In this document: positions 6,144 through 56,141 of the stretch, piece by piece
How the letters are laid out: each line of letters opens with the position of its first letter
How positions within the stretch are numbered: position 1 is the stretch's first letter
Assembly: GCA_973895155.1 (NCBI GenBank)
Contig: OZ316895.1
Span: 20,288,803-20,352,802 of the forward strand
Source of the DNA: Marsupella aquatica
Lineage: Eukaryota; Plantae; Marchantiophyta
DNA length: 64,000 nt
Direction of reading: 5' to 3'
Made by a program: the position numbers and the translations under genes
The notes under the pieces: generated by a model
Database searches by the model: none
What the model was told of the DNA's origin: nothing
The model's input: only the letters and a program-made list of their open reading frames with translations

Positions 6144-6237
6144 ATTCTCGTCTCATTCTCCCATGATTTGTTGTACACTCGTAGCTTCTGGTTCAGCCAA
6201 ACTCTGACGCTTTTTTTTTATGATATCAATGATGACT

Positions 6238-32875: not shown

Positions 32876-33384
32876 TAGTAAAAGAATGACAATAGCCATC
32901 ATACAAGGCATTATACAATTGTGAGCGAGATGGGTCAATTGACTAGAGTGAAATGTATCTACAAACTGATCTCAAAGTGTTACAAAACCTGTCACATTTG
33001 TAACAAGTAAATATTATTTTTTACATTTTCTTTACGGAGATGAGTATTTTTTAAATAGATACTCACACAGTTTGAGCTTCTCCTCAATTTGAACCCACTT
33101 CTTACAATGTGCTTCACCATTTCTCTCATTAACTAGTTCTTCAAATACCCACAAAATATAAACAAAAGACAAACTAAGTTGCTATGCAATCCTCGTAAAC
33201 GTGGATCTGGTTCTACCATTCATGGAAAAATGACGCACGTGCCGAGGCTGCAATTTCATATAAAAAAGAGCAAATTCCCCTCCAGTAATCATAATGAAGG
33301 GTATTAATTGCCCAAACTTGGGCTTCCCTCTCTTGCTCTTTAGATGTTTTTTTCTCTTGCGCTTCAGCTACCTCAACTGCTTTC

Positions 33385-33655
33385 TTATCTCGCGCTTCCA
33401 ATTCTTTCTTGTGCACTTTGATTTCTTACTTGTTACTTGACTCTTGCTGTCACCAATGCCCTACTTGCTCGTTGACAACTTCGATAGTTGGTTATCCCAT
33501 ATAATCAACATTGTTTATTTGTCTTTAGAGTGTTATGGATTCTTCCAAACTATCTTGTAGAGTCAGCCTGTTGAGGAAACATGTTGCAAAACTTGAGGAA
33601 GCGTGCAAGGAAGAAATCAAAGTTCACAAGAAAGAATTGGAAGCGCAAGAGAAGA
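33385..33655. repeat. ~40-45-bp inverted repeat
   Basis: AAGAAATCAAAGTTCACAAGAAAGAATTGGAAGCGC at 33611-33646 is the reverse complement (1 mismatch) of ~33392-33427. Confidence 0.8.
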
Positions 33656-34351
33656 GGTTTTAACTTTGCAAATTTGGGATGGTGTAGCGATGCGTGTTAG
33701 TTCGCAAGTGCCGGAATTCTGTTTATCGGGCCTTTGTTGATTGCGATGTGTATGGGTTAGCAAAAGGGGCCGATAGTGTAGTAGTGTAAGTAACAAGAAG
33801 CCTTAAATGATGAGTAACAAGCCCATACTTTAGGAACTCTAGCCAAAAAATCAGAAAAACAACGAAAAAGTCAAAAAAAGTGCAAAAATTAGCACCTATT
33901 TTAGAGCAAAAATATGGAGCGAACAAAATATGACATAAACTAGCTATGTTTTGACACCTAAAAATGACCAAATTCATCTGAAGTTACATTCCACCAATAA
34001 ATGATCTCAAATACAACACTATTATCTACAATGGTCTCACAATTACACGAGGTGTCTTTTGAAACAACAACTAAATCACCTCCAAAAGCCATTGTCATTT
34101 AAAAACCAGAAAATAAATTACTACAACTTAACCTGATACACATTATTGTGAAAAGAAGACAAGGAGAATAGAAATGACACCATCTAATTGAATTGAAACA
34201 CAACCCACTAAGATAATATTAAACTACAAATTTCTCAAGAAACTTTAACCATGAATTCATGAATAAGTGGTAAAGGCATTTTGAAAATTTGTAAATTTTC
34301 AAGTTATCCATGTTTTTCAATGGTAATGTCACAAACAATAACTACTTTTCA

Positions 34352-37300
34352 TTACTCAGATCCAGAAGTCCTCAATTCTTGAAACGAAATATCCCTAGAT
34401 TTATCTCCTAGCGGGGTTCTAGTTGATCCATTCTCTTGTTCTTGCTCTTTCTCTTCTGCCAAAAATTCAGTCAATCGGATTTTGATTCGATCTACTGTCT
34501 TTTTGTACAATGTATCAGATTTTTTCAACATGAAGTTGTAAGCAAAAACAGTCGTTGAAGATAAATCAAGCTCTTGGTGAAACCATATTGGTTTCAAAGT
34601 TCCTTTCCCACGACCACTTTTCTTCTTTTCGTAGTTTAAGACTTCTGGTAAGTACTTGGCTTTCCAAGGATCTGACCCGGTTTTTGTAGCATGCCATAAA
34701 ACATAAATCATTTTTGGAATGTTGAACTCGTCGCGCTGGTCAATTCTTTCCACCTTGGCCACCCAAAATGTTTCCGATTCTTCTCCAGCAACAGAAATAT
34801 AAGTGTTGACTTCAAGATCCGAAAAGTCTCCTTCCATATTCTCCTTCTCTGCATCTATCTTTCCTTGATTCCGATAAGGACCCACGTATATATCTCTGGT
34901 AGGTCCGTATACTCTCTCTTCAATTTCCTCTTCATTGACAAGGACTCTGGGAACTTCAGCAGCAACAGCAATCTCCCTTTGGGAGCGTGGCCATTGAAAA
35001 GGGAAAATCAATGGTCTTTGATCAAGGAGCAAAGATTTATTCAATTCCCGTTGCTCTTCAAAAAACATTCTCCACCAGTTCACTTCCTCTTCTGAGAATA
35101 AAGTTTCAACTGCAAGTATTCCCTTTTGAATCTCATTTAACGAATCATCCATCTCCTTCAAAGTCATTCTTGAAGAACTAGACATATTTGGTTGAGTCCT
35201 TGTAACGTTCTTATCCCCCTTTTTGAAAAGGGGTAATCCGGGAGCACAACCCATCACCTTTTCTGGCTCCTCTTCCCTCAAAAATTTCACGCCTCCGTCA
35301 GGTTTCCAAGTTGAGTCCGTGGAAAACTTCTTCCCCCATTGGGTTGGAACTTGATTTTCCAACTTGTCAAATGCAAATTTGTACTGGTGGTGGAAGGTAA
35401 CATTTCGAATCCTTTCAATGACTAAAGGTGGATCTGAGAAGGCATATTGACGGAAATCATATGTTTCCTTTAAAAGAGTGATTGGGGTTGATATGATTCA
35501 CAAATAATATCACATAGGCTTTCGTATGTGAATGCCTTAAACCTTGCTAGTCGTTTAGAAAATCGACTGAACATTTGATCTATTTGGTCGTGTGTGTGTC
35601 CAACCAACAAGAATCCTAGTTTGATTTTCCAAAAAACCTTTCTTCGAATCAACATATGAAGATAGGCAAAGAGTAAATTATTTTTATTTTCTCTACTGGT
35701 ATTATCAAGTTGAAGATAGAGAACAGGCGGCAAGCCACCAGGCTTTTCTTCCCATTCGTGAAACACCCTTTGCAGGATTGTGACTGTGAAGTTTCCATCA
35801 TTATGCAATACAGGATAATTAAGAAACACTCTTGAAAATAGTGCACCATTGAAAACCAGGCATCCGACAACGTGCATTTGGATCAAACATGTTTCGTCCA
35901 CCGATTTTGGGGGCCGCGGCCAATGAGGCAACCTTGTCTTCTTCTGATCCATCCCGTCAATGACAACTCCCAAATATTTATCAGAATTTGAAAAAAATTT
36001 CTTACGATGCTTCGCGAGTTTCTCACGTTCTTTGGATTGTTGGTCTCTATGTTTTTGTAACATAATTTCCCCTCGCCCTGGAAAAACAACTTGTTAGTTT
36101 CTTCAAAAAAAATTAGAAATCATGTGTTAAGCCATATTCTTGAAACAAAAACTTGTCAAACTTGTAAGTAACTTACTCTTTTCGGTCTCCGAGACAGCTT
36201 TGTCCCGAATTGATTTGAACTCCTCGCAATCCGCGCAAGCACTGAATCGATTGACTGGAGGAATCTTCACATGACCAAATTCTTGAACCCAAACTTTCAA
36301 GAATTGTCGATAGGATATTTTTGAAGATTCATCAATCTTGGCATAGTTGGAGTCGTAGATCTTCCATACCTCCAGCTTTGAATAATTATCCGGTAAATGT
36401 GAAACTTCTTTATTTGGCAATGTTTCCACGCGTGTCTCAAAAAACGACCTAAGCCAACTGACCAAGACTAATCTTTTAACAGATGGAGGGCGTCCAACTG
36501 GTTTAGAATATCCTAAGTCTTGGTTGTCTAATTTCAAAATTCTATTTAATCTATGATTGCCAACGCAAAATATAAGCTTGAAAGCTTTCCGACAAATACT
36601 CTTTTGACCAAACGTGTAAGATATAGTCTGCCTCCCTCCTTCATTTCCGTCTCGCTTTATAAGCCACTGCAAAGATAAAGATCGATCCTGAGATTTCTGC
36701 CTCAAAAATTTAGAACGCGCCTCACGAATTTCTTTTGGAGATAGACTTAGGAGACAATGACTCTGACAACAGTACTTACTATTTGTTTTCTTGATATCCT
36801 CCTCTTTCAACTTTGTTTCACACAAAGTGGCGTTGCTCGTACATTTGTAACGACTAGATGCCACCGGAACATCATCATCCTCCCCACTCTCCGAAGACTC
36901 GCTTTCATTCGATGATGAAATGGTCACCAACATTTGCTTCTGAACATGCCTAGATTCCAGACCTGCAGCCTTCGGAGATGGAGGCTCTTCCTTCACTCTA
37001 TGCACCCTTGGAATACCTGGGCGTATTTCAGAAATCCCTCCATTACCGTGTAGGGACCCTTTCAATATTTTCCTAGGGTCCCTCTCCACCAGGTTGGTTT
37101 CCATGTTTGAGTTTCCGTGACTTGATCCGCTCCCTGCCCCAACACCATGACTCCTAGGTAAAACTGAGGAACGCACATTAGAATTCTTTTCTGGAATACT
37201 TTTCAATAACACTGGTCGTCTAGTTTCTTCCCTCATCCCCCTGTGAAATGTTTCCGACGTTGGCTTACCAAAGGTTTTACTTTTTGGCATTTGCTTCAGC

Positions 37301-37743
37301 CGCTGAACACTTTGGAGACTGCAAAAATCTCTGTCATTTTCCCCACTTAGTGCCTTCTTCGTCTTTCCAAATCCAGTCTTCATGAATTCATGAGACCGTT
37401 TCCCAGACATCCAAATAGGCATTGAACCTTCCAGATTACTCCCCAATTTGTCCTTTGTTGGTGACAAAAGAGATACAACTTGACGTCCAGGGGGACCAAT
37501 ACTCTCCAAGGAGTCAGAGGAGCTCCCTGACCTCTCTTTACCACCGACCAATGATTTCTTCCCACTAATTGCAAGTCGTAAAGGACTACGTTTTAACTTG
37601 CTCATAGGGGTGGGGGGTGGCATATCTAAAACAGTAGTTATTCCAGGGATATCTGGGCCAACCACTGTGCAGGGGCCATCCGGCAATGAAACATCATCAG
37701 AAACTCCATCTGAATAATCATCTGATTCGTAACACGCCGCCAT
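34352..37743 (-). CDS. Sola-related DDD transposase (RNase H fold), ~1100 aa, 2 exons, one frameshift
   Basis: Exon 37743-36177 splices in frame (GTAAGT...TTCCAG) to an exon starting at 36077. Cys-rich YCCQSHCL and FSACADC motifs. Catalytic-type motifs IDGMDQKKT.LP, LYLQLDNTSRENKN and FLLVGHTHDQIDQMFS. A 1-nt frameshift at ~35485 joins ITLLKETYDFRQY... to ORF 34352-35362. Confidence 0.8.
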
Positions 37744-38522
37744 TGGAAAAACTAGTGCAAATTGACAAGAAACTCAGAAAATCAGTAAAATCTAACAAAT
37801 CTTCTCAAAATAATGACCAAGAGTCATGAATAAACGAGCCTATTTATAGTTTTTCACGGATTGTTGGGACTTTTTAACTTCAAAAATATCAAATATTCAT
37901 GAAATTTGCAAGCTTTTTCCCGTTAATACCCCGAAATATTCATGAATAATTGGCCCAAAAACATTGATTTATCATGATTCTGGGTTAATTTTACTAAGTC
38001 GCGCCTGATCCGTGATTAGTATGTATAACCAAGGAACACGGGGCAGCCCATTCATTTTCACTCAATGTCATTTGGATTTCCTTTGTAAAAGAGTGAAAAA
38101 CAATCTCGCTGTCCAATTTCGTGCCATTTTCAGCACTCATCGGCGACGTGTCGCGAGTTGTCGCGGTCGCACTTCATTTCGACCCTGTTTTAGGTAGTAA
38201 TTTAGGCCCTGGGTGATTTCTTCACGTCACCCCCCTCCGAACCCTATTTTAAATACCCTTCTGCATCACCGAGGTGTACAAGCAAAGAGAGAGGAGACTC
38301 CCTTCATGAATTCATGAAGGTCGGAGCGAGAGGGAGACTCCCTTCATGAATTCATGATAGGAGTCCTGGGGTGGCCGAGAGCGTTGTTAGATCCGTAAGG
38401 ACACGGTTTTAGTAGCCATTTGTTGGCACATTCCTTGGTTCTGTGGCACTTTGTCTTGTAGGTTGGGGTTGAAGTGGACTGATTTTGTGGTATGTTCTCA
38501 GGTTTGAAGATCAGGCAAAAAC
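37744..38522. promoter_or_regulatory. Putative bidirectional promoter between transposase and ParB-MTase, with TCATGA palindromes
   Basis: CTATAAATAGG on the - strand at ~37839-37849 and TTTAAATA at ~38248. Perfect 20-bp palindrome CCTTCATGAATTCATGAAGG at 38301-38320, with a second copy 40 bp downstream. Confidence 0.55.
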
Positions 38523-41500
38523 ATGACAATGTCGCAGGAAGAGCTAGTGGATGACATCTTTTCGCGCCATCCTTTGACGGACTTCCACAACTCATCCTGG
38601 ACGATTTCCTTAGGGACGGAAACATGGAAGAAGCCCTTCCTAATGCTGTGTGTATTTGAGGGGCTTCCATCGGGGGCATTAGGGTGGGTAAATTACGGCC
38701 GCATCGATGTATTTCGACGGGGCGACGAAGTTGTGAACATGTTGATCACAACGAAGGAAACATCAACTTTGATTGTCGTGGATGTGGAGAGGTTTTCTGG
38801 AACGGCTGCCACCTGCTATCTCGATGAGGACATCGATAGCATCATTGAGACTGTCAAGTCTCTTTCGAGTGAGGAACGTTACCACGACGTCGCGGGAAAG
38901 ATTTCCGGTTTTGTGTTTGAATTTCACGCTAGCACTTTAAAGAGTGCAATCCGAAAATCAAGAGAGATTCTCCGGAAAAGGTCGGCAGAGAAGGGAGTAA
39001 GTCGTCCACCCAAATCTGGGGCTTCCGGTGTTCCTTCTGGATCGAGGCCTAGCATTTTACCCAATGATATTTTGACCGTGGTAGCGCCTACAACCTCCCG
39101 GGAAGCAGCAGCATCTGGAGGGGGATCTCAAGTTGGCAGATCATCCCAGGGAACGGCTTTGACTGGTGGGTCGGCACAAGGTACGACTGGAACTCGCATT
39201 TCTTCAAAGAAGCGACCTGCTATGACTCTTGAGCCTACCGAGCCCAGTGCTACAAAGTCAAAAAAGAAGACTTTGGAGAAAATTCCAACGCATTTGGAGC
39301 AAAAGGCTCAATCAATGTCAATGGATGCACGGGTGTTGTACCAGGAGGAGATTCTGGGAAGATGTGGTGTTCAAGAGGAGACCGTGACCGTTGACATTGG
39401 TCAACTTTACCCTCCAGTGAGAGAGAAGGCTGTGGGCTTGCCCATTTACCAGGTCCGACACATCCAACCATATTTCTTGACCCAATTGACCTTGCGGATG
39501 AAGACTGTAGGTGCCAGTCCACTTGCAGCTCCGTTTGTCCTCTTGGTGGATCCGAAGGAGTGTGCTACTAGGCAAGACTTTGATTTTTCAAGGAAAGCTG
39601 ATTACCATTATTATGTGATTGGGGGCAACCATTCAGCCCGTGCCAAAGCAGACCTTGCTCTTCAGTTCCCTAACAACAAGGCATTTCGGAGAGTGCAATC
39701 TTGGATATTTGCGGGATTGAGTGTGCAAGAGGCAAGAAACCTTGCGTGGAATCACAATATTGATTCTGAATTTCGACAACAGATGACGACAATCCAGAGA
39801 GTAAATTATATTCACATGAGATTTGTTGAGAATGGATTGTCGTCCAACCAGGATTTCAAGAAAGAGTGTGCTACTGAAATCAATCTCAAGGATTGGGGTG
39901 TACGAAAGGATGCTGAGGTTCTTAATGCCAATGATAACCTATTTCAGTTGGCATTCCGACAAGATCCTGTGTGGTCATTTGTGAGGCAGATTTGTGACAA
40001 GTGGGAGATGTGTGAGATCAAAGGTCAAAAAGGAGACAAAGGCAAGAAGAAAGTCTCTAAGTCTGGAGATGCCAAATTGCCTTATGAGGACATGAAATTA
40101 ACAGAGTGGAGACACATGCAGGCCTTGAAAGATCCTGATATGATTTGCCCAGTGTTACAGAGAGTTCTTACTAAAGAACTCTCTTTACAGGAAATGGGTC
40201 ACGAATTTACTCGACACAAATTTCAGATGCAGGTGCAGAAGGCCTTCCTCACGTGTCTACACGAGGAGAGTTGGTCAGGTTGTAAAACCAAGTACCCTGA
40301 GCATTGCACAGACAATGTGCTTAAGAATTTCGTACCTATTTTCCAGACATGGGTAAGATTCTGTCACCTTTCTTCGAATGATTGTTTGAATTCATTTAAT
40401 ATTTGGAATCCTTGTTTCTAATTCTACAGTTCCTTTTTGTAGAAAGATACCACCTCCCGGAAAAAGAAGGGAGATGAGGAAGGCAAAGATCTCAAGTCAT
40501 TCCCGGACAAATTCAATGCGCATATTGTGCAAGCCCAAAATTGGCTATCCATGAAGACTTCTAGTCGGCAAACCCAAGAGGGGGAACTTCATCCAAATTC
40601 GTTTGAGCATCCAGAGTTTGGTGATGTGCACTATGATATTTTTACTCATGATGCTCAGCGATTACATGAGGTGGTTCCGGGTCGGGCTTACACATTAGCT
40701 TTAGTGGATATTCCCTACGGGTTTGCATTGCCTGGATGTCTTCATGAAGACACTATTGGATGGGGAACTGAGGAGATCACAAAAATGGTCCAATCGTTCA
40801 AGGTGGCTACTACTGCAAAGTTGTGGCGTATTATCATTCACCACAGCCTTGACCAATATGAGGCCATCAAGACCGTTTTGAAAGCGGAGTGTAATGGAGG
40901 GTTCCAGAATTGTGTGTGGTAAGAAATATTTGTTTTTGAAAAAAACAACTATTAGTTATTCATGATTTCATGAACCATGTTTCTCAGTTTAAATAACTCC
41001 TTGACTTTTTGTGACTTTTCAGGGTTAAGGATAATGTGAAGAATGCTGGTGGACCAAGATTGAACAGCAACTTTGAGTGCTTTACAATTGGCTTTCACAG
41101 CCAGGATGGTAAACGGTCATTGGAGCACTTCAATTTTGACACAAATGAATCAAGGAACAATGTGGTTGTATGCGCAGCTGTGACTAAGAAGCTGAAACAC
41201 AACGGGGATAACAAGGCAATGAATGTTTATCAGAAACCACGTGCATTGTTAGATTGGGAAGTGAGTCATTTTAGTCAGGTTGGAGACTGGGTTTTGGATA
41301 TTTGTTCAGGATCAGGGATTGGGACAACCTCCTCCTTGGCCATGGGGAGACATTGCGTTGCCATTGAGATTGACGAGCGACAGAGCAGTGTGTTGGAAAG
41401 GGAGGATTCTTAACCTTGCAGATAACATTGAAGAGGAAGACGGACAGGGGGAGATGGATGAGGAGAGTGAGGAAGACATTCCTCAGGCCGGAGAGGATAG

Positions 41501-41585
41501 CGTGGTTGACGATGCCACAATTGTTCCAGAATTGACGACAGGGACTTCCGGAACCGAGGAAGGGGAAGCGGTCCCTTTGGATTAG
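38523..41585 (+). CDS. ParB/Sulfiredoxin-like domain fused to a beta-class N6-adenine/N4-cytosine DNA methyltransferase; 3 exons; 1-nt frameshift near the C-terminus
   Basis: Exons 38523-40352, 40443-40918 and 41023-onward splice in frame at GT-AG sites. ParB-like PFVLLVD...YYVIGGNHSARAK. MTase motif IV ALVDIPYG precedes CVWVK, then QKPRALL, motif I VGDWVLDICSGSG and GRHCVAIEIDERQ. An apparent extra G at ~41396 shifts the acidic tail (...GRILNLADNIEEEDG to 41585) out of frame. Confidence 0.85.
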
Positions 41586-41939
41586 ACTAGATAAATAGAG
41601 GGACTCGTAGCATTTGAAACCACTTGGGCTTAAGTTGGGTTATATTTTGTAAAACTTTGAGTTTGACTTAAACTCTGATCGATGAGTTTGATTTTGATTA
41701 CTTTTATAAAGTGCATATTTCAAGGTTTATACAATTGTGAGAATATCATATAAGATATGCTTAGATTTTGGTGGTAAAATTCTCTTGAGTCTAGTTTGGA
41801 AAATACATACAATTTTTTGGTGGTTTTTTGGTATACACTTTTTAATATCATGAAGATTTTGAAAAGAGAAATAAGGCTTTGGACTCATCCCTTAAGGCTT
41901 CTTGTTAAGTGTGCTAGTATTGTAGTTACGTGAATGGAG

Positions 41940-42200
41940 CAACTGTAGGCAGTACACTATAGCATGCACATTGTAGATCGTACACTATAGCATACACATT
42001 ATAGATCGTACACTGTAGCATGCATGCTATAGATTATACACTGTAGCATGCACACTGTAGGTCTTGCATTGTAGCATGCACTCTGTAGACCGTACACTAT
42101 AGCATGCACACTGTAGATTATACACTGTAGCATGCACACTATAGGTGATGCACTGTAGCATGCACACTATAGACTATATATTGTAGCATGCACGCTATAC
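41940..42200. repeat. Minisatellite, ~28-bp unit (14-bp sub-period), about 8-9 copies
   Basis: CACTGTAGCATGCACACTGTAGATCGTA-like units. Confidence 0.9.
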
Positions 42201-42289
42201 ACATGCATATAATGCGAGAATTCAAAGTACTATCCACACACAGTACGAACGGTGCATTGAAGTTCGTGGGGTTTTTCATGAGAAGTATC

Positions 42290-43692
42290 TTAGTTGATAT
42301 TCTCCACATGTAATCTATCCACTGGTCTAATCAAAGTTGACATATCCCCCTCCTCATCAAATATCAGATTTTTGACATGCAGAAGGATAGTTGTCCTTTG
42401 CACCCTTTGTTGCATCAACAGACTGAGCTCTGCTTTGATGGCGTTAGTCTCATACATTGAAAGAGCCGTCTCCTCCTCTTGATCAGCCTACAAAAAACGT
42501 TGCAAATTCAGTTCAGGAAAAAAAAAACAAGATTTTTATCGGAATCCGCATTTGTCTACAAAAAATGTTGCGAATTCAATTAAGGAAAGAAACAACAAGA
42601 TTTTTATCGAAATCCGCATTTGTTCAACAAAACTAAACGACATAATACTTACCAATGGCATCGTAGGAACCGCGATGAGAACTAAAGGAATTGATGTATT
42701 AGTCGGAGCTCTAATTACTTCTGGAGCCACCGTTTCACTCCAGCCAGTTCTCTTTCTCTTTGTGCTAAGTCCAAAACCAGATGGCCCGGATCCCTCAGAT
42801 CCTTTACTTTTGCTTGGATTAACGGATGGCGCTTCTGATGCACGTCCTCAACAATTGCCTCGGCCCCTTCCACTACCGCCAGTTTCCTGGCTCCTCTTCC
42901 CACCGTCAGAAATTCCCGTGGCATCTCCCCTGCTGCTACCTCTCCCTTTCCCTCTTCCACTTCCTGAAACCCAACCAGAACTTGCGGGTTTGTCCACATC
43001 AATATGTGGAGAGGTGTGTAATGATTCTTTACGGCCCGACCTTTTATCGGCATAAGAACCACCACTCCCGCTTGAACCAGGTTTCTTGAAAACAATTTTT
43101 TGGACAGGTTTGAACTCTTCACCCACAAGTCTCTTGTTCTCTTGTACTCTGAGTTCACCCTTGGTAGCATGATAGCATCACAATCTTGGACATACTCGCA
43201 CACCCAAGCCAACCCCATAACATTCATCTCTCTTGCTGCTCAAACTTTGATGACAAGGAGATCTTCTGGATAATTGTCAATAGATTTCTTATCAAAGTTG
43301 TTGAGAGTAACAATGACAGATGTGAAACCCTTGCGTCCACACATTGTCAAGAAACTAAGGCCCTCTGTCAAAACTTTTCCCTCCCCGTGGCCAACCATGA
43401 ACTCATAGACGGCCACAACAATCACAGGGTCATACGAAACATTAACCTTTGCAGATTTTTGCAACTGGACCCAAAGGATTGCAGTATCACAATCTTGGAA
43501 ACCCGTGGACTGTAATCTGGCGTCACGAAAGTACCATGGCTTCTTGATACACTTGACCTCTTCACAAATGTCTTCACTCGTCCAAATTGCATTGGTGAGG
43601 CTTGTCATGAGACTTTCAGCCTCAACAGATCCACTCTTTCCACTAGCAGCGCTGCCATGGCAGAGTTTGCAAATAAACATATTCCAATTCAA
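42290..43692 (-). pseudogene. Decayed cargo gene of unknown function (globular N-terminus, Gly/Ser/Arg-rich linker)
   Basis: ORF 43240-43692 continues in frame past a single TGA into 43227-. It then shifts to the frame of 42848-43126 and 42536-42730. A donor-like GTAAG lies at ~42652, and a last exon ~42488-42290 reads ADQEEETALSMYE... Confidence 0.5.
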
Positions 43693-43975
43693 AGAGCGAT
43701 AAAATTATCATTGCCAATCTCATAGCACATGTGGAAATGTAGCACGACATCTCATAACACATAAGGACAAGAGACTCGCAATGCAGACGACGATAATTTT
43801 ATCGCTCAACTCAAGATGGGGTCATTCAAGTTTCAGTATAATCATGAAAAACACATTTCCAAGGAAGTTTCAGTATAATTATACCAACACCGATAAAATT
43901 ATTGCAAAAGTAGTCTGAACAAAAAGTGAGCCTTTTTTAAATTGACGACCGAGTACACATGTGATATGTGCCTAA

Positions 43976-44870
43976 TCAATCATCCCTTCCAAGATCAAAC
44001 CGCGCTACAGCGTAGCAAGAGATTAGCTTTTTGGGCCATCGGGGAATATGAGTGACGCTATGGTCGTACGCCCACAACCAATGGAAATCAACATCACCAG
44101 TCTCAGGGTTCACTATTGCTACTGAATACCGGCGTGACAAAATGTCACAACAAGCATTGTGCAGCATTGACACATCTCACCATTGGCAAGGATGCTCGTC
44201 CACAGGCAACATACATAGACTAACTTAAACAACTCACATAAAGGTTGGGGGGAGTTGACGAGTCCTGTATGAATATAGTTTCCCACCAGTGTCAATCAAA
44301 AACTTGGTGGCAAGAGGATTAATGTCCAGTTGGTCAATCACATCCTAAATCTCATCAAATGCTCTACGTCTGTTGTGGGCATAGAATTCTGGTTCATATG
44401 CAGGATTGCCCTTCACAACATGATAACAGTGCAGTATAAAACATTTTATTGCACCGGTTTTCAGAAAGAGCAGGATAACTCTTCTAGAAAATGAAACATA
44501 TCTATCCCACCGGATATAAATTTCTCCCTCTACCTGGTCTACGTAGAAGTGAAATGCGTTATTATAAAATGATTTTGCGACTAGCCTGCAAATCTTTAAA
44601 ATTAGTGATTCATCCAGCCTCCTTAGCTGGTCCATCATGGCGCCATTTCCCCATTCCGGAGGATCCACGAAGGGTACAAAAATGTGCCGCTTGAGCATGG
44701 CCTGATCAGCAAACGGAAATCATGAATAAATTTTGGAGAACATTAACTCATTCCAATTCTACAAGTTTATTCCAACTAAGTTAAAGTACCTTGTATAACG
44801 GGCTGTGAAGCCAATGCACTTGTCAGCTAATCGTCCATAGATGCGCAAAAAACTACACTCTGGACCACAC
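43976..44870 (-). CDS. Fragmented cargo ORF(s) of unknown function
   Basis: ORFs 44345-44698 and 43976-44173 have globular-protein composition, with an AG acceptor just upstream of 44698. Confidence 0.35.
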
Positions 44871-45036
44871 AACCCGAAGTTAGGCAAAGCAATTCAGTGT
44901 CATTTATATTCAAAGTGTTTCTTTACAAGCTCTTCTCAAGCAAACCACCCACTGAAAAGAATTGACTACTAAATTGACCAGAAGGAATGAGGAGTGCGAT
45001 AAATTTATCGGATGTTTGCAGCAATGCCTCATCCAC

Positions 45037-45584
45037 TCAGACTCGTCCACGCCATGCAAGAATTGTCCGCTTCCTGCTTTCTCCAAGATTCACCCAAACT
45101 CTAAGAAACGCATCTAATCGGTCATACGAAAAGCACCCAAGCATATCTATGGGAGGGAGGAAATGAGTTTCCTCTCGAAAGACCCTAGCAATATGTAGGT
45201 TTGGGAGAAGGTCGGCATTAGGAATGCTTGCGAGCATTTTGTTTATGTCATTAATCTCACGAACTGCGTATTTCAGTAAAACCCAAAATCCTGTACCAAC
45301 AACAAGATGGTTCCATTTCTTTGAGGTGGCTCCAAGACAAATAATTATTCTCATTTGAGCCAGTCATTTTTGGGTAAAAGTTTTAGGTCATGGCCAAGGT
45401 GTTCATCGTGTGTGCAAGACAATGCTAAGAGAGGCCAAATATGAGATTCAACGAGCTGATCAGGAAGTCTATTCAACAAACTTCCGCATTCCACACCGGC
45501 CACTTTTCCTTGAATATATTTCCTATGCTCATGGGCTAATAAGGATGCCATCTTAGCAATGATTAGGTTCTCCGATGCAGCCAT
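45037..45584 (-). pseudogene. F-box-like protein split across two overlapping ORFs
   Basis: LLNRLPDQLVESHIWPLL in 45351-45584 and ICLGATSKKWNHLV in 45037-45354 resemble the two halves of an F-box; the ORFs overlap by ATGA. Confidence 0.45.
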
Positions 45585-46694
45585 TAAGCAGAGCTACCAA
45601 AACCACCAATAAAAGTACCTTCAATCACGGGTTCAATCACCAGGTGTAACCAAAGATATCCACAGTACCAACCCTACATGACAGTTTAACAATTAGGACT
45701 CGGAGCGTATTATATTCGCTACACTTGGGTAAAACTGTTTTATATTAAATGTGTCCTTACAAAATGCGCCTCATGTGGTGCGTCCCATGGCTCCCTAAAC
45801 CCAAGAAACCCCCCAGCTCAAGCCGATTCCCGCAGGTTTTGTGCTTGGCGAGGCCGTTTCCGCGGCTTAGCGGCATGGGACGCTGCTAACCTTCTACTAC
45901 TACTATTAACATTTTACACACATATACTGGACAGATCCTTCATCGGGTCATGAGATACGTAGCCGGCCTAATATAGGCCTTCCCCTATCTTCCCCTGTCT
46001 TCCCCTCCGTCTTGTTAGGTATGTTTGGATTCCGCCGCCGGAATGATCCCCAATAGGCTTGGTTAAGCCGCTAAGACCTCTCTCAGCTCGACACATCCAA
46101 CTCTCACTCCCCTGCTTACTTTCCTTCCTTCTGTTGATGTGGGCACTCTTCACACAAGTTAATGCGACACACAAATAGCAAAATGACTCATTCTGACTGA
46201 ATCATACCATGCACTTGCCATACAAACAGTACATCTCATACACAAGTTCTGCGAACTAAGCCGTGAGGCCAACTCTATTCAGCTCTTAGGCATGAGGAAA
46301 CATGAATATACACAAGGGTCACTGTATGACTAACCGAGAGCTTCTCGTACTACTTGATCCCAGCCCGGCTGGTGCAAACTAAAAACTTGCTAAAGAAGAG
46401 GCCCTGAGCTCCCCGCTGCCCAGGTACTTATCCTGGTAGTGGATCCGCCATTCTTTGCATCGTAAGCCTAATCTACCTGACAGTAATCTACTTGCCCGAA
46501 TCTACCTATGTACAGCAAGGCAGGAGCACAAGTGTTGCTCCTACCAGTGGGACCGCAATCCCACTAAGCTAAGTGTCAGGGCCGCTCCTGGTTCTGATCC
46601 TAATCCTAAACGTGGAGATCCGCGCCCGCCCTGCCCACTCACGCCTCCTCCCTCCACGTCCGCCCTCCCTAAAAGGAACGGCACCCTTGCACCG

Positions 46695-49600
46695 TCACGA
46701 CACCGGTGGTGGATCCTCAATGGACGCCCCCAACACTTCCTCCTCAGCCACTGCCGTTGGCCCGCCTACTGACAGATTACCTGCCCTTGACCGAGTCAAC
46801 TCTCCATCGGCCTGACTGGGTCCACCTTCGGCTTTAGCCTCGACACCGGCCTCGGCAATACCCACGGCTTCGGCAATACCCACGGCTTCGGCCTCAGCCA
46901 CTCCCACGGCTTCGGCTTCAGCCACTCCCTCGGCTTCGGCCTCCCCTTCCCCTAGGGTAGTTGGATCCTTAGCCGTGACCCTGTCTGGGGTCGGTGCTGG
47001 GTCTACCTCCTTGATCACCACGGCCTGTGAAGTCGTATTACTCCTTGACCCTGAAGGTTTCCGCTTCTTCTTCGTTGGTGGCTCGGCAGCTGGTCCCTTC
47101 CCCTTCCCACTTACTTCCGGCACTGGTGCAGTTGGCGCGGCTTGTCCTTCGGCAATTACCACCCCTGGTAACTGGTTTGTCCCAACGGGAGATGGACCTG
47201 CTGCAGCTAAGCATTTAAATACTGCGGCTTGTTTCTTCAGCCGCTCTGTTTGGTTGTCGGCCCGCCGCTGTAGGTTCTCCATCTTCCTCGTGATTTCCTC
47301 CAACTCCTCTTGGGTTTCATCCAGGTCCTTACGTGCCCCCTCCAGCTCATTTTTGGCCTCCTCTTGCTCCCTGTGGGCTTCCTCCAATTCCTTCTTCAAG
47401 GTAGCCCTCTCCTCCTGGGTTGCTCTTAGCTCCTTGTTGAGCTCTGCAATGATGACAGACTCCATCTGGTTCATCTTGGCGTAAGTCTGTTCGAGCATCT
47501 CGTCCTTCTCCCTTAGGTCGGCCTTGAAGCTGGCCGTCAGGGACGCAAGCTCCTGCTGCAGCGCCATAATCCCTTGATAGGATTTCCCTAACTCGACCTC
47601 CTTCTGCTCAAGGGCTCCGCGGATTTTCTCGAGCTCCCCTTTCAACGCCCATTCCTTTCTTTGGGTCTCCGCCATGGCCCGGCTGTTGGCTGTTATGTGG
47701 GCCTCCTCTGTATTCTTCAGCTCTTGCTTCCACTTCTCCCTCTCTTTGATCGTGTCGGCCAACTCTTCCTGCGTCTGAGTCAGTTTATCCTTGATATTCT
47801 GATTATCAGCCTGCGCGGTGTCCAACTGCCCCTGCATGATGTTCAGCTCATGTCGTTTAATCCGCAGTTCATCTTGGGCTTTCTTGGCCGCCCTTAGATC
47901 TTCAATCTCGGCTTCCATCCTCCTAAGCCGCCGAATGACCTCGTCCTTCTTGCTTCTCTCTAAAGCCACCGCTTCTTCTAATTGGTGCTTCTCCAACTGC
48001 TCCCTATGGAAAAAGGGTCCTACCTCCAACTCCTCTCCAAAGATGCCGAGTGCAAGTTCCCCACACATCTCACCATACTCCATGGCTCTATTCTTAGCGT
48101 AGGTGGAGTAAGTAGAAGTGATCGGCATCGCCCATCGTGGCCTCTGCTCCCAAGCCGTCCTGCGGATCTCTTCAATCGTGGCTAGAGGTTTGCTTCCTTT
48201 TTCGGCCAGCCGCCTGATGTCCTCCGGCCAATCTCCTCCTGGTAAATCCTTTTCCTTAGCCAGGGCGGCCTCTTCCTCCTGCTTGATTCGCTCCTGAAAT
48301 TCCTGCACCGTCTGTTTTATGCCGTCGAAGCTCGGGGGAGCAACATCTGGTGGGGGAGACTCAGGGCTACTCTGCTGGTTGGGGTCCCCTCGCACTACCC
48401 TTGGAAGTGTGGGGACAAACCGGCCACAGGTCCTTACTCCTGGAACGTGATGGTCCGACCCATAGCCGGAATTATCATGGCTGCAGTCCTCCACTGCCTC
48501 CTCTACCTCTTGGACGTCCGGCTTCTCCCTCTCCTCTTCGTCAGTAGGAGCTTCAGGCAATTCTGCCTCAGATTCGGAGCTTGAGGTTCCCACGTACATT
48601 CGAACACCTGGCTTGGATTTCGGCCTGATTCTCTCCTTGTCTCCAGCAAAGGGGTTTTCTCTTGTGAGCCGGTGTAGGCCTACCTCTATAGTAGTGTCCT
48701 GCATTGTTGCCGTTGCCGTTGTTGTTGCCGATGCCGATTTCTTTTCTTTCTCTAGTAGTTTCAGCAGACTCTGCATGCCTGGTTGCTGCATCGGCAAGTC
48801 TTCCTTCCTGGGCCTAAACACCTGCTCGATCGTAGGACTAACAGGTGGTTGAGGCTTCTCAGCCAACGGCCTTGGCGTTGGAGCTTCCTCGGGTGCCCTT
48901 ACCTGCAGGGGAAGTACCGGGGCAAAAGTCTGACCTCTGGCATACCGGCACAACAGCGGCATGTGATAGCCAAGCCGCGACACGCTCCCCATGCCGATTA
49001 CCTGCTCCTCCTCCTTTAAGATCTTCTTCAATTGGTTGAGGAGGTACCCGTTGTAGTCCCGGCTTGGGTCTGGCCTTTCTGCCAGATAGACCTGTGCCTT
49101 GCCGATCTCTGCCCTCGGCAAGTTACAATGCATGGTCACCCGCAAGAAGTCGATCATCTCTCCTATGTGCGGGTTGGTGCAGGTGTTCCGGAAGAAGCCA
49201 TTCTTCGTTGATGGCCCGGGGAACGACCGGAACTCCTTGTCAGGCAAGGTCTTCCTGGTATCAACTTTGGTCTTATTGCCTATCGGCAGGCCAAACACTT
49301 CGGCAATTACCTTGGGAGTAAGATAGAAATCCTTCCCATATATCCTCGTGCAATTGGTCTCGGGTTCCCATGACCCCACGAATTCTAATAGGTCTGACTC
49401 CGGTACCTCCGGCTTCAGCCATGGTAATCTTACAAAGGCCTCCAAGCCGGATCCGGCCATGAAGCCTTGGTACTTCTTGGTCTGCATGGCTGTAAAGCAT
49501 GCATCCTCCTCCCGTGCAAAATGTAGTTGCACCTCCACCGGTAGGGTTGCCGCCCAGCCCTTCCAGGTGTCATCCCTGGTTGGAATGGCCTTGATGGGAT

Positions 49601-50375
49601 CGACCTCCTCCTCTTCGGCTTCTCCCTGCCTCCTGCTCTGCTGCTCGGCTGGCCTCTTTGGTGCCGCCGACCTCGTTCTTTTTGACGGGGTGGCTTCATC
49701 GTTGACGGCCCCCTTCCTCTTCATCTCTGCTGCCGTGGAGGTTTCTCCTAGCACCGTTGCCTGGGTCCACCTTTCCGTGCTACCCTTTAATTCCCAGTGT
49801 ATGTCGTTGCAGTTCTTGATGGCCTCTCGGATGCCAACGACGCTGTCTTTGCAAAACAGAAGATCGTCGAGTTGATTGGAAGTAGGCGTCCACAGGAACT
49901 CGTCCTTGATGAGTTCGCCTCCTAAGAAAGCCGTCTTCTGCAACTCCCACAATCGAGCGAGCTCCTGCCGTTCTCGAGCTGCCCTTTCTGACTCCTCGTC
50001 CTCGTAAGTCTTGATGTACTCAGTTGCCCGTTCGAACAGGCATCCCCAGAAATGTGCCACTTGATTGACGTTGCTCATACCCTCCTTAGGTCGATCGTCG
50101 GTATCTACTCTCTCCCCGAGTGCTTGCCTAAGCAGCTGACAGTAGTTGGCCTCCCGTAGTCGTCTACCTAGTTCGTGCTCGCAAATGAGCCACCATCTCC
50201 TGCAAGCGCTCCTTACCCCTCTCCTCTGCCGGTCCTTCTTCCCGTTGATCCTTCCTAGCCGCCGACGCTTAACGCACCCTAACCCTAATCGGGTTTTCAC
50301 CCTTAGCCTTACCTCCGGCCTCGGCCCGGGTTCCATGGTTGCCCCTAATTGTTCATATTTTCCTTGTTTTGTCAC
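46695..50375 (-). CDS. Intact, intronless 1226-aa TE-associated protein (plant-mobile/'putative plant transposon protein'-like domain + long coiled coil + AEAVG(V/I) repeats)
   Basis: Uninterrupted ORF. GLEAFVRLPW...LLEFVGSW...IYGKDFYLTPKVIAEVFGLP resembles the extra ORFs of plant Gypsy elements. Heptad-rich region ~aa 790-1060. A degenerate paralogue is at 10.5-11.9 kb. Confidence 0.7.
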   Translation of the reverse strand: MTKQGKYEQLGATMEPGPRPEVRLRVKTRLGLGCVKRRRLGRINGKKDRQRRGVRSACRRWWLICEHELGRRLREANYCQLLRQALGERVDTDDRPKEGMSNVNQVAHFWGCLFERATEYIKTYEDEESERAARERQELARLWELQKTAFLGGELIKDEFLWTPTSNQLDDLLFCKDSVVGIREAIKNCNDIHWELKGSTERWTQATVLGETSTAAEMKRKGAVNDEATPSKRTRSAAPKRPAEQQSRRQGEAEEEEVDPIKAIPTRDDTWKGWAATLPVEVQLHFAREEDACFTAMQTKKYQGFMAGSGLEAFVRLPWLKPEVPESDLLEFVGSWEPETNCTRIYGKDFYLTPKVIAEVFGLPIGNKTKVDTRKTLPDKEFRSFPGPSTKNGFFRNTCTNPHIGEMIDFLRVTMHCNLPRAEIGKAQVYLAERPDPSRDYNGYLLNQLKKILKEEEQVIGMGSVSRLGYHMPLLCRYARGQTFAPVLPLQVRAPEEAPTPRPLAEKPQPPVSPTIEQVFRPRKEDLPMQQPGMQSLLKLLEKEKKSASATTTATATMQDTTIEVGLHRLTRENPFAGDKERIRPKSKPGVRMYVGTSSSESEAELPEAPTDEEEREKPDVQEVEEAVEDCSHDNSGYGSDHHVPGVRTCGRFVPTLPRVVRGDPNQQSSPESPPPDVAPPSFDGIKQTVQEFQERIKQEEEAALAKEKDLPGGDWPEDIRRLAEKGSKPLATIEEIRRTAWEQRPRWAMPITSTYSTYAKNRAMEYGEMCGELALGIFGEELEVGPFFHREQLEKHQLEEAVALERSKKDEVIRRLRRMEAEIEDLRAAKKAQDELRIKRHELNIMQGQLDTAQADNQNIKDKLTQTQEELADTIKEREKWKQELKNTEEAHITANSRAMAETQRKEWALKGELEKIRGALEQKEVELGKSYQGIMALQQELASLTASFKADLREKDEMLEQTYAKMNQMESVIIAELNKELRATQEERATLKKELEEAHREQEEAKNELEGARKDLDETQEELEEITRKMENLQRRADNQTERLKKQAAVFKCLAAAGPSPVGTNQLPGVVIAEGQAAPTAPVPEVSGKGKGPAAEPPTKKKRKPSGSRSNTTSQAVVIKEVDPAPTPDRVTAKDPTTLGEGEAEAEGVAEAEAVGVAEAEAVGIAEAVGIAEAGVEAKAEGGPSQADGELTRSRAGNLSVGGPTAVAEEEVLGASIEDPPPVS

Positions 50376-50474
50376 TATACTAAGGTGTTCCTAGGGTGCC
50401 TTCCTGCTTTACCCACTTAACCGGCCGAGTGATTCCTGTCTAGGCATCACACCTCAATGTGAAGGTTGCAACAC

Positions 50475-50804
50475 TCATCGTGAAAGGTTGACCCAAGGGT
50501 CCTCGTTCCAAATCTGACAACATAAGTATGCCAGTTTATGGTACTTGTTGTGAAGACGACAACAACAATAGTTACAAGAAAACTCCAAAGAATGGAGACA
50601 CGCCGTTAACATCAACCTTGAAAAAATTGGAACTCCTGCACCATTCATTCCGCAAAACTCAATCCGGAGAGGATTTTGCCTATCTCCGAGAGCAGTAGCA
50701 CCCATCCACAATGCTCCTACACCAATAGGGAGAACTTTATGTTGCACTAGTTTCTTGTACAACCGGCGTGCACATTTGACACAATTTTGAATTAAGACAG
50801 CCAT
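50475..50804 (-). CDS. Small Cys-rich ORF of unknown function
   Basis: 109 aa, CVKC...CNYCCC..H...CC; possible zinc-binding cargo gene. Confidence 0.3.
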   Translation of the reverse strand: MAVLIQNCVKCARRLYKKLVQHKVLPIGVGALWMGATALGDRQNPLRIEFCGMNGAGVPIFSRLMLTACLHSLEFSCNYCCCRLHNKYHKLAYLCCQIWNEDPWVNLSR

Positions 50805-51014
50805 TTGTCAATATACCTATGATCCACCGAGTGCAATCGACCTTCCGTTGTGCCTCCTAAACCCGGCAGCACTGCGACATCACAAAGGAAGATGAGTCTC
50901 CAAACAAAACAGAGGAAAATGAGTCTCACAAGAGGGTGCAATAAGTTTATCACACTTCGCATTCACCTTGAAGACATGACTCCCTCACACACCTAAGCCC
51001 TGAATCCATTAAAG

Positions 51015-51400
51015 GAATGGATACTCTGATAAATTTATCGGAGTCTCAAACAATCTTCAATCAATCACAAGAATGGAAACTCCAATAAATTTATCGGAGT
51101 CTCAAACAATCTTCAATTAATCACAGGAATGGAAACTCCGATAAATTTATCGGAGTCTCAATTAATCCTTTATCCATCAAAGGAATGAAGACTCCGATAA
51201 ATCTATTGGACCTTGAATATAGTCTATGGAATGAATGCGCACTCCTCTTATTTTACTGGATCAAAGGAATGCAACATAGGAATGTAGAATGCGATAAATT
51301 TATCGCAATCTGCTCGGATCAGGACATTGACACCAAATGACAAGTCAACCTTACATAGATGATACTCAAAATAGAATGGTAGTTTTGATAAATTTATCGG
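51015..51400. repeat. Array of palindromic CCGATAAATTTATCGG sites, 4 copies at 56-bp period plus 2 outliers
   Basis: ACTC(C/T)(G/A)ATAAAT(T/C)TAT(C/T)GGA at 51023, 51079, 51135 and 51191; TGCGATAAATTTATCGCA at 51290-51307; GATAAATTTATCGG at 51387. Confidence 0.9.
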
Positions 51401-52274
51401 GTTCTCTGGAGAAAGAGTCAAGTCTCTTGGGAGGAATGTAAGACTCAATAGGAGTTCAGTATTCGCTCTGAGTGAGGTGTTGTTCGCTCCGGAAAAAATA
51501 AACTTTTTATGGGCAGCCCGCTCCTCTTTATATATGGGATGCTCTAACCATGCATGGTTACTTTCCCCCTTAACCCGAGCCTTAACCCGGGTTAGTGCAT
51601 GATCGACCCTCGATTACGTGGTTCAGACCAAGTTACTCGCAGTTTGGACTTTTTCACAGACCAAATGTAAAACCCGATGCACGTATTGCTCCCTGCATTC
51701 CCGCAGCGATGCAATGTAGGAAACTAGTGTTTCTTCAAGTTTTCAGCAGTTTTATCGGAGATTGCATTGCCTTAGAAAAAATGGAATTGGGCTAAACAAG
51801 AAGTGTGTCCCACTTCTCGGTCGGTCCAAAATCATGTTAAGTGTATTGCTCAGTCTACTACAGAAGTGGATTATGTTGCAGCAGCGGAAGCAGCAAAGGA
51901 AAAAAATTGGTTGGATAGACTTATCATTGAGATGAGATTGCCAGAGGGGAATGTGAAGCTCCATTGTGATAGTCCGAGTGCACTCCACCTTGCTATGAAC
52001 CAGGTGATAGACAACAGAGTGAAGCACATTGATGTAAAGTACCATTTTATCAGGCAGGCTGTGTCTGATAATATGTTTGAGCTAGTCAAGATTTACAGTA
52101 AATTCAACCCGACTTTTACGTCGCTTTTACTAAAGTGATTCCTTTGGAGAGTTTTTCTAGACACCGTGATGCGTTGTAGGTTTTGCAATTGCCTCATAAG
52201 TAGGGTTACTTAACATTTGTGTAGATACTGAGATATGCTCTTGCTCATTTCTTGTATAGGCTACGGCTTAGTTC

Positions 52275-52677
52275 TGTTGAGCATAGACGACGATCGCAAC
52301 GGCAAGCCCATGAACCATCCAACGCACAATAGTCGACACAAGAGATACGTGGTTCACCTCCTTGAGGCTACGTCCACGGGAACACACAAGAGAGCTTTAC
52401 TGAACTCTAAGCCCGTCGGCTATACCGAGTCTCCACAGTGTAAGCTCTCCCTATCTCTCAAGTGGCTCCATAACAATGAGCCTTGGTTCTACCTCTCCAA
52501 GTACACATGCCTCTTATGATATAGTGTGCAACTTAGTTGTACCTAACCACATAGTTGTACCTAACCACATAGTTGTACCTAATCACGTAGTTGTACCTAA
52601 CCACATAGTTGTACCAACCCACATTGTTGTACCAACCACGTCATACCTAACCTAGACGTAAGAGTAAATACCCAACA
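52275..52677 (-). repeat. Copia 3' LTR (contains 18-bp AGTTGTACCTAACCACAT tandem units)
   Basis: Direct repeat of 58331-58733; TGTTG...CAACA termini. Confidence 0.95.
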
Positions 52678-52868
52678 ATCTTCCCCTTGACTCTGGTCTA
52701 GGGGAGAGTAATACTGCCAATGTATATGATCCCTCAGCGGGAAGTTCTGGACAGAAACCAAACCGGTTTCCCTCTCTAACTAGAGCAAACCAGAACTAAG
52801 CCGTAGCCTAATACATAGGAATGAGGAAGAGCATATATCAGTAATTACAATGAATGTTTAAGAAAACT

Positions 52869-55800: not shown

Positions 55801-56141
55801 ATCACTGTCTCTCCCGACCTGACTTGAAGTTCACCATCAATAACGCTCCATTGATGACCATTTGAATCCAACACACCGAGTGAAATCAGATTCTTACGCA
55901 TGCCAGGTACATACCTGACTCCGGACACTGTGCGCACAGCGCCATCAAACATTTGAATCTTCACAAATCCAATTCCCTCAATTTGACAGGAGTGATCATT
56001 TCCCATCAGAACTGAACCGTTTGAAATAGAGTAAGAACTGAAAAACTCACGAATGTAACAAATATGAAAAGAGCAAGCACAATCAAGAATCCACACATCA
56101 TCTGCTCTCCTAGATGACGTGCACAGGGCATACCCCCGGCT
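52869..56141 (-). CDS. pol: Copia pol (protease, GAG-pre-integrase, integrase, RT, RNase H)
   Basis: WILDCACSFH; LWHSRLGH...CEHC; HSDVWGP, LRSDNGGEY, QQNGVAERLNRTL; YKARLVAKGF, LYGLKQSPRQW, LYVDDML; GYVDSDY, STTEAEY, VKHIDVRYHFIR. Confidence 0.97.
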   Translation of the reverse strand, partial: SRGYALCTSSRRADDVWILDCACSFHICYIREFFSSYSISNGSVLMGNDHSCQIEGIGFVKIQMFDGAVRTVSGVRYVPGMRKNLISLGVLDSNGHQWSVIDGELQVRSGETVILKGSRQKNLYVLQGNTVCGEANVTKSHEEMTQLWHSRLGHMSEKGLAILRKNGLISDLQSCKLEFCEHCILGKQHRRAFGVGTHRSKAVLEYIHSDVWGPSPTPSHSGKLYYVSFIDDYSRFVWIYFMTHKSDVLSIFKKWKAQVENQTGNTIKCLDTRVKSLRSDNGGEYTSMEFEEYCSEQGITRHLTTVYTPQQNGVAERLNRTLLERSRSMLSQSGLPQEFWAEAVNTAAYLVNLSPSSAINFKTPFEMRYKRQADYHGLVIFGSDAYALTPKQNRTKLDPTSRKCVFLGYQSGVKAYRLWDPIACKLVVSRDVSFNESRLLKEGENTQVSRTDKRKSPIPDLVEGEIGYEVHDRREGVAPIMELVPVPEEPEEFVDAGEQQVDAVELQIVPAHADQPESSARRTSGRTVRAPSRYGQWVDSSQLQEDDFTADDEGDALILEEGEPSSFHEASASKEKQKWTAAMQTEMQSLKDNKTWELVKLPKGQQVVDSKWIYKLKDNSIGGGSKVYKARLVAKGFTQEKGVDYNEVFSPVAKYSTIRLLCVLVVMFGLLLDQMDVVTAFLYGTLEEVIFMRQPLGFVKRGQEELVCRLLKSLYGLKQSPRQWNKRFDDWIRSQGFHRSVFDPCVYLKPVKNVVFGFIVLVLYVDDMLIAAKDRSEIVKLKALLSAEFKMKDLGPAKRILGMEITRDLEAGKLWLTQSSYARKVIARFNMENSKPVSTPLAPHFKLSSAFCPTDDTEKGLMSKVPYDKAVGSLMYLMTCTRPDLAMAMGKVSRYMSNPGKVHWEAVKWIIRYLKGTVDHGLLFDANAKNARSLIGYVDSDYGQDLDRRRSTTGYVFTLGGGCISWRSTLQKCIAQSTTEAEYVAAAEAAKEAIWLDRLITEMGLPQGNVKLHCDSQSALHLAVNQVMDSRVKHIDVRYHFIRQAVSDKLFELVKIDGKLNPADAFTKVIPLESFSRHRDVLQVLQLHHK

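Follow-up and report, generated by a model that had tools for sequence, protein, structure and literature searches.

A probable Sola1-type DNA transposon in the liverwort Marsupella aquatica with a predicted ParB-methyltransferase and a conserved candidate recognition palindrome

Might a plant transposon recognize and mark its own DNA? The question is raised by an 18-kb block within a stretch of 64,000 nucleotides from the liverwort Marsupella aquatica (assembly GCA_973895155.1, contig OZ316895.1, positions 20,288,803 to 20,352,802 of the forward strand; hereafter the window, to whose numbering all coordinates refer), in which the genes for a transposase and for a ParB-methyltransferase, a predicted DNA methylase fused to a ParB-like part, lie head to head. 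We propose that these two genes belong together as parts of a single mobile element, as the comparisons of sequence described below support, and that the mobile unit bearing both of them is very probably an 8115-bp core (unit B, 33792..41906) that is likely a Sola1 transposon. The 18-kb block as a whole is best read from its sequence as three nested elements, with unit B inside an outer element of ~5.4 kb (unit A), plus a further insertion (unit C). Unit B represents a young member of a design that has already been described, here with a precise candidate recognition site, and the design is apparently unreported in land plants. An earlier note on this DNA, made from the letters alone, had recognized a DDD transposase of ~1100 amino acids (aa) and a ParB-methyltransferase gene facing each other about 780 bp apart, and in all of this it was right, as the two start codons are head to head with 779 bp between them.

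The boundaries of unit B are marked by a pair of terminal inverted repeats at 33792..33823 (plus strand) and 41875..41906 (minus strand, 321 bp past the methylase stop), which agree at 27 of 32 bases (blastn E 0.007 within the window) and give the unit its AAC...GTT ends. They are flanked by AAGT at 33788..33791 and 41907..41910 (both plus strand), a 4-bp duplication obtained from only one of the seven boundary offsets tried. A related locus on a metagenome contig (L003) has an arm that matches the right end of unit B and stops 315 bp past the methylase stop (7 of 2000 shuffles gave an equal score), and its DNA beyond this point differs from the window. Because of the inverted pair, the AAC/GTT ends, the AAGT duplication, the L003 arm and the Sola1-like termini, we take 33792-41906 to be the conserved transposon, and membership in Sola1 is likely from the predicted DDD fold, the termini and the 4-bp duplication. 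The AAGT of this one insertion fits the AWDT preference of insect Sola1 elements, which are described as favoring AWWT or AWDT targets (PMC3845634). The terminal inverted repeats begin with the same three bases as those of Sola1-1_Ec32 from the brown alga Ectocarpus, for which a supplement row gives the termini AACCG-CGGTT and a 4-bp duplication (PMC12477816). The CpG observed/expected ratio is 0.60-0.83 in the genes and intergenic region versus 0.49-0.62 outside, which is not diagnostic.

The transposase gene lies at 34352..37743 on the minus strand, where three open reading frames (ORFs; 36127-37773, 35470-36093 and 34352-35497) make up a single gene that has an intron at 36176-36078 and, in this copy, a frameshift near 35480; read through the frameshift, the product has 1097 aa. 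Its middle exon matches DUF7869 (E 2e-44), which we take to correspond to Sola transposases, and this is its sole Pfam match. Of 514 candidates from a search with the DUF7869 exon, 122 were relatives, those with a name coming from Riccia sorocarpa, Adiantum, Ceratopteris, a sea urchin and a green alga, and the aspartates of the acidic triad D563/D647/D689 are conserved in 58/60, 60/60 and 60/60 aligned relatives. The structure model of an intact relative, P0013 (80% identity in the core; predicted local distance difference test score 88), has a DDD/RNase H fold closest to mariner transposases (Z 8.7, root-mean-square deviation (rmsd) 3.4, 165 aligned); Foldseek returned no transposase match for E<=0.001. 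The last domain of the same model resembles BAH1 of DNMT1 (Z 7.0, rmsd 3.8, 80 aligned) and the EBS and SHL proteins (Z 6.7-6.8), and at these middling scores the predicted C-terminal domain of the transposase appears BAH-like; F444, W445, W468 and Y469 of this tail are kept among relatives, and a sequence search of the PDB with it gave no match. The N-terminal part is cysteine-rich. In a transposase tree built by a quick method from 80 rows out of 102 hits, with most Riccia paralogues dropped, no strongly supported group contains the window copy, and the methylase-adjacent transposase of Riccia is placed in a separate branch from it.

The ParB-methyltransferase gene (38523..41585, plus strand) encodes ~956 aa and has introns at 40353-40442 and 40919-41022 and a frameshift near 41395 in this copy; both splice junctions are those of an annotated protein (P0133) of the liverwort Calypogeia fissa, the source of the nearest named methylase relatives (61% and 69% identity). 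The predicted order of domains is a PH-like domain at ~20-140, which is weak (Z 4.1 at best), a disordered linker and a ParB-like and helical part at ~280-570, all encoded by exon 1, and then a beta-class methyltransferase encoded by exons 2 and 3. The last is matched by PF01555 (32.9 bits versus a cut-off of 26.7), and its motif IV, DIPY at 699, precedes the S-adenosylmethionine-binding motif I, DICSGSG at 861, which is the beta-class order. The ParB fold comes from the predicted structure and not from Pfam, which detected none in the protein: a ParB N-terminal fold is followed by a helical part of DNA-binding type, with Foldseek E values of 9e-6 to Noc and 3e-5 to ParB and, by VIA, Z 9.0 to ParB over 286-564 (rmsd 12.5) and Z 8.6 to PadC (rmsd 3.1, 97 aligned). 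Among 15 eukaryote-type methylase relatives D-x-P-Y is present in 10 and DIPS in one, neither was found in four, and SPPY occurs in none; the solved structure nearest to P0133 is that of the adenine enzyme CcrM (E 0.006). Adenine is therefore the likelier target, and from motif and model the predicted product is likely N6-methyladenine (6mA) rather than N4-methylcytosine (4mC). Identity of exon 3 with the three related loci described below is 0.74-0.75, 0.84-0.85 and 0.44-0.52 at codon positions 1, 2 and 3, and since third positions have diverged far more than second positions, the methylase is under purifying selection. A profile search with exon 1 gave 448 cluster representatives. None of 131 pattern matches to the gene in viral contigs and none of 20 in prokaryotic genomes was confirmed, so that neither search identified a donor; no RNA run is listed among the sequencing runs with the gene, which says nothing on expression. 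One relative, P0147 (1825 aa), seemingly contains two ParB-methylase modules in tandem.

That the two genes travel together is supported by a metagenome scan in which three loci (L001, L002 and L003) were confirmed out of 28 pattern matches. In L001, which has 65% DNA identity to the window in the methylase, a transposase start at 691 (minus strand) faces the methylase ~1 kb away, in the same head-to-head arrangement as in the window. In Riccia sorocarpa the methylase R1sor_020633 and the DUF7869 gene R1sor_020635 are two locus tags apart on records whose contigs are equally long, and P0004 and the transposase P0013 are each on a Logan contig of 8829 bp, an equality of length that suggests one and the same contig.

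The family also appears to be recent. Where the left flank has a depth of 18.7x in sequencing run X1 and 42.4x in run X2, unit B reaches 484-621x and 1151-1761x, which corresponds to ~30 copies (29-33 in X1 and 27-42 in X2 for the contigs used), and unit A is also present at ~30. Individual contigs as long as 1821 bp, with a depth of ~560x, are 0-4 letters off the window, so the family is young. The high-depth contigs at both breaks keep the frames open, that of X1 differing from the window at the transposase frameshift and those of both X1 and X2 lacking the methylase frameshift, and hence the two frameshifts of the window copy look private to it. The two runs are identical letter for letter in the flank and may come from the same or very close species, while a run from a third study (X5) holds a more distant family whose match to the window breaks at the edges of intron 2. 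The 13.5-kb composite of A and B thus appears to have been amplified ~30-fold recently in this genome.

What, then, would the ParB-like part bind? The candidate is the palindrome TCATG-N4-CATGA, which has four sites in the window, all of them in unit B, where 0.07 are expected in 64 kb. One lies in exon 1 of the transposase (37380..37393), and L001 also has a site in the 5' part of its transposase, at position 346. Two more form a pair 40 bp apart upstream of the methylase (38304..38357), 170-220 bp before its start; the pair recurs in all three loci that include the region (spacing 40 bp in L001 and 42 bp in L002), and 0/500 shuffles equaled it in each. The fourth lies in intron 2 of the methylase (40960..40973) and is present in 4/4 loci (the window, L001, L002 and L003), 45-62 bp 5' of the splice acceptor (0/500 shuffles; chance ~5e-5 per intron). 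The arms are constant, while the spacer (AATT, ATTT, ATAT or CTAG) and the surrounding intron sequence change, as is expected for a dimeric binder. The divergent promoter region between the genes (37744..38522, 779 bp) is also rich in the shorter palindrome TCATGA, with 8 versus 0.3 expected (0/500 shuffles equal), as is the intergenic region of L001 (7 versus 0.56 expected). From this conservation of sequence the 14-bp palindrome is likely the site of the ParB part, and CATG is a candidate for the methylated motif.

Bacterial ParB recognizes parS, and in the reading toward which we lean, with moderate confidence, the ParB-methylase of unit B would likewise bind its own TCATG-N4-CATGA sites and write 6mA at or near them. 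A ParB-like dimer would recognize the 14-bp palindrome, and the beta-class enzyme fused to it would methylate adenine; the simplest target would be CATG, of which the divergent promoter has an excess. Through this mark, or through the protein once bound, the promoter shared by the two genes might then stay active against host 5-methylcytosine (5mC) silencing, and the action of the family might be restricted to its own copies. The transposase, with its BAH-like tail, may in addition be a reader of histone methylation in the host.

Some bacterial methylases regulate their own transcription through their operator, and the enzyme could be such an autoregulator only, binding or methylating its operator to set divergent transcription without any anti-silencing role. 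The placement of the paired palindromes shortly before the methylase start and the intergenic concentration of TCATGA are in keeping with this, but of all the sites the one within intron 2 is the most strictly conserved, and a further one lies in exon 1 of the transposase, which is why marking of the whole element fits better than a single operator, and we consider pure autoregulation unlikely, if still a serious alternative. Should the palindromes instead serve the transposase or a host factor, with the methylase acting elsewhere, the transposase with its own cysteine-rich N-terminal part would be a candidate binder; however, the terminal repeats, where a transposase binds, have no perfect site in or near them (the nearest, with one mismatch, is at 34249), and three of the four sites belong to the methylase gene or to the DNA shortly before it, which makes this quite unlikely.

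A third alternative concerns the structure of the block rather than the enzyme. High depth is not confined to unit B and reaches ~130 bp to its left and rightward to ~51.8 kb, uneven and lower near the right end. The left segment of unit A (33662..33791, 130 bp) starts with AAC, carries one TTTATCGG half-site and is recognized from depth, as is its probable left end: depth is single-copy up to 33616, the flank contig stops at 33700, and depth arithmetic gives ~574x over 33671-33834 in X1. The middle of unit A (41907..45773), with high-depth sites of 486-876x in X1 and some sites far lower, contains a 28-bp minisatellite (41952-42199) and decayed minus-strand ORFs, and the right segment (50452..51838), which ends in GTT, contains a 56-bp array of CCGATAAATTTATCGG-type palindromes at 51013-51210. 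The whole 13.5 kb might therefore be one ancient element, the inner repeats being merely subterminal, as the similar depth over A and B and the AAC/GTT at the outer ends would have it. Yet the perfect 4-bp duplication is at the inner ends, and between the outer ends there is neither an inverted nor a direct repeat (240/300 shuffles score as high). The right end in L003 is followed by different DNA, and four X2 contigs join the right part of A to other sequence at 41906. The motif families also split cleanly, since unit A has its own 16-bp palindrome, CCGATAAATTTATCGG, different from that of B, and TTTATCG half-sites number 18 in unit A (0.5 expected), 0 in B and 2 in the other 45.8 kb; without the right array there are still 9 versus 0.3 expected, including one within the left 130 bp. 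We regard a single 13.5-kb element as distinctly improbable and keep to a B core nested in A, where unit A may be a non-autonomous element of Sola type that captures genes and has another ParB family addressing it.

For the earlier note, which had proposed a single mobile unit of ~13-18 kb with the same palindromes along its length and with cargo genes, the outcome is mixed. The two main genes are linked, ~13.5 kb seems to be co-amplified, and the minisatellite and palindrome array are present, but the mobile core is the nested 8.1 kb, to which the terminal repeats, the AAGT duplication and the right end recurring in L003 all belong, and an unrelated 4.7-kb insertion makes up part of the block. 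The palindromes are of two families, with TCATG-N4-CATGA only in B and TTTATCG concentrated in A. The supposed cargo is also reduced, as its largest ORF (1231 aa) is in the separate insertion and the F-box-like ORFs have no Pfam match (E<=1), as is true of all eight cargo ORFs at this threshold. The decayed ORFs of unit A, all on the minus strand, are a MATH-like one at 43240-43704 (Atlas score 0.88, a lead only), an orphan at 44345-44719 and one at 45037-45593 that resembles F-box proteins by eye; an Atlas search with another cargo ORF gave no match.

Several observations weigh against the picture of a mobile, self-marking transposon. The related loci are three only and all short, the 620 bases upstream in L002 do not include a transposase start, and the L003 contig has no upstream part. 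An empty site of unit B was not seen among the joints listed (15 of 17 and 15 of 199), which also favors the single-element view, the target duplication comes from a single insertion, and copy numbers taken from contig depth are rough. The outer flanks of unit A differ (TTTT and AAGT); with alternative outer ends at 33664-51836 a TTAA 4-mer matches as a duplication, but there is no terminal repeat. A recombinant copy would explain both the differing flanks and the divergence of the right part of A from X2 high-depth contigs (25 letters off in 267, farther than B). For the enzyme, DIPY deviates from the canonical DPPY, and PF01555 (E<=0.01) is found in only 8 of 28 long ParB-family relatives, hand-picked out of 150 listed, so that fusion of the ParB part to a methylase is not universal. 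The CTP-binding motif of ParB is arginine-rich, whereas this position is GGNHS in 13/13 aligned sequences, and hence clamp-like spreading is doubtful.

The weakest alternative is that the enzyme makes 4mC, as DN4MT1 of Marchantia does, and so shields cytosines from host 5mC, which is very improbable since, even if PF01555 spans both activities and liverworts are reported to possess 4mC enzymes, the DN4MT1 type is described with TSPPY (bioRxiv 10.1101/2021.02.12.428880), in place of which the window family has D-x-P-Y with no SPPY, and the solved structures closest to this family are those of adenine enzymes. In the preprint on DN4MT1 the enzyme is, like that of unit B, a prokaryote-like beta-class amino-methyltransferase of a bryophyte, but it is presented as a 4mC-forming host gene pair of sperm, with no ParB domain or transposon in that description.

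The earlier note had not recognized this exact combination of genes as described in plants, while allowing for a prior report, and the combination is already described in a brown alga. Sola1-1_Ec32 is reported to pair a Sola1-type transposase with an opposite-strand ParB-like/N4-N6 methyltransferase of 1104 aa, for which a self-modification hypothesis was put forward, with green and red algal precedents cited in the same source (PMC12477816). Unit B is like it in having a transposase and an opposite-strand ParB-methylase, AAC...GTT ends and a 4-bp duplication, but the brown algal element has 21.5 kb and a terminal inverted repeat of 282 bp, while that of the land plant has 8.1 kb and 32 bp. 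As far as the two can be compared by description, a conserved binding site and a BAH-like tail are features of unit B that are not named for Sola1-1_Ec32. No land-plant report of the design is among the literature matches listed, and Repbase Reports or preprint supplements may hold one; Sola1 of Physcomitrella is listed in a table that does not mention accessory genes (PMC9033089). Plavaka (EnSpm) elements of red algae, described in a Bostrychia preprint, carry a PF01555 methylase and ParB-like accessory genes (PAG2 and PAG3) beside inverted-repeat arrays (bioRxiv 10.1101/2025.02.11.637652), and are thus, like unit B, DNA transposons with both functions; as described there, they are of another superfamily and have them in separate genes, with ParB fused to a 2-oxoglutarate oxygenase and the methylase to SET. 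The VANC proteins of Arabidopsis VANDAL elements are a parallel to our proposal in that a transposon-encoded, sequence-specific protein acts on non-coding motifs of its own element, but VANDAL is of the MuDR superfamily and VANC is described as stripping silent marks, whereas the protein of B would add a prokaryotic-type mark (PMC10398659). DIRS and long terminal repeat (LTR) retrotransposons carrying DAM are likewise transposable elements with prokaryotic-type adenine methylases, but they are retrotransposons, and the main text on them has no ParB, Sola or Marchantia (bioRxiv 10.64898/2026.05.21.726589). The adenine methylases fused to ParB-helix-turn-helix in chlorophytes and chytrids are placed in another structural group (PMC4738411), and further sources concern classification and context only (PMC4455052, PMC5751038 and PMC12730594).

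In the papers on brown and red algae, enzymes fused to ParB are proposed to bind the transposons that carry them and to modify these, with no test in what is described there. To this the unit B family adds an exact candidate site conserved across copies that are ~35% diverged, and ~30 near-identical copies, the majority without the frameshifts of the window copy, together with relatives in liverwort genomes. If 6mA is present on the palindromes, land plants would have an adenine mark written by a transposon. Such a mark would be a second sequence-specific route of anti-silencing, next to that of VANC, and might be a source of the low-level 6mA signals in plants. More tentatively, and with less than even confidence, we suggest that the transposon families of bryophytes and ferns include young and intact ones with a private epigenetic circuit of bacterial style, in which a ParB reader of a parS-like 14-bp site would be fused to a 6mA writer, in a host lineage for which loss of genomic 6mA is assumed, and a BAH-like transposase reader would tie insertion or activity to host histone marks. 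The outer palindrome would then serve a sister family as its address, so that the sequence of the site would tell families apart.

The remaining features of the block and its surroundings are of other origins. Unit C (45774..50451, minus strand) is an insertion of 4678 bp that has TG...CA ends and a CCTCA duplication of 5 bp and contains an ORF of 1231 aa, which is coiled-coil with no Pfam match above the cut-off. In each of the runs X1, X2 and X3 there are contigs that join across it, and its summed depth in X1 is 36,000-79,000x (~2000-4000 times single copy, roughly 100-fold above A and B), and hence it is a later, unrelated insertion. There is no LTR pair inside it, and it could be a giant protein-coding solo LTR or a non-autonomous element; a decayed relative (65-75% identity) is at 10505-11938. 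At the right edge of unit A, up to which an X5 contig matches (51580-51838) before it diverges, a copia fragment begins at 51839, and 51839-52207 is an inverted fragment of the 3' coding end of the copia element that follows. That element (52275-58730) is apparently full-length, with LTRs that lie 6056 bp from each other and show no difference in the 300 bases compared, and with gag and pol in one frame interrupted by a single stop at 56142; an inverted copy resembling its LTR, with an 18-bp array, is at 58825-59741. To the left of the block, 215-bp direct repeats (92%) flank gag- and protease-like ORFs at 5160-9407 (by eye, with no Pfam support), a possible non-autonomous LTR element, and decayed minus-strand ORFs at 25700-29300 resemble, by eye, the endonuclease and reverse transcriptase of a long interspersed nuclear element. 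A 50-bp inverted repeat (92%) at 33383-33655 is in the single-copy flank immediately left of the element.

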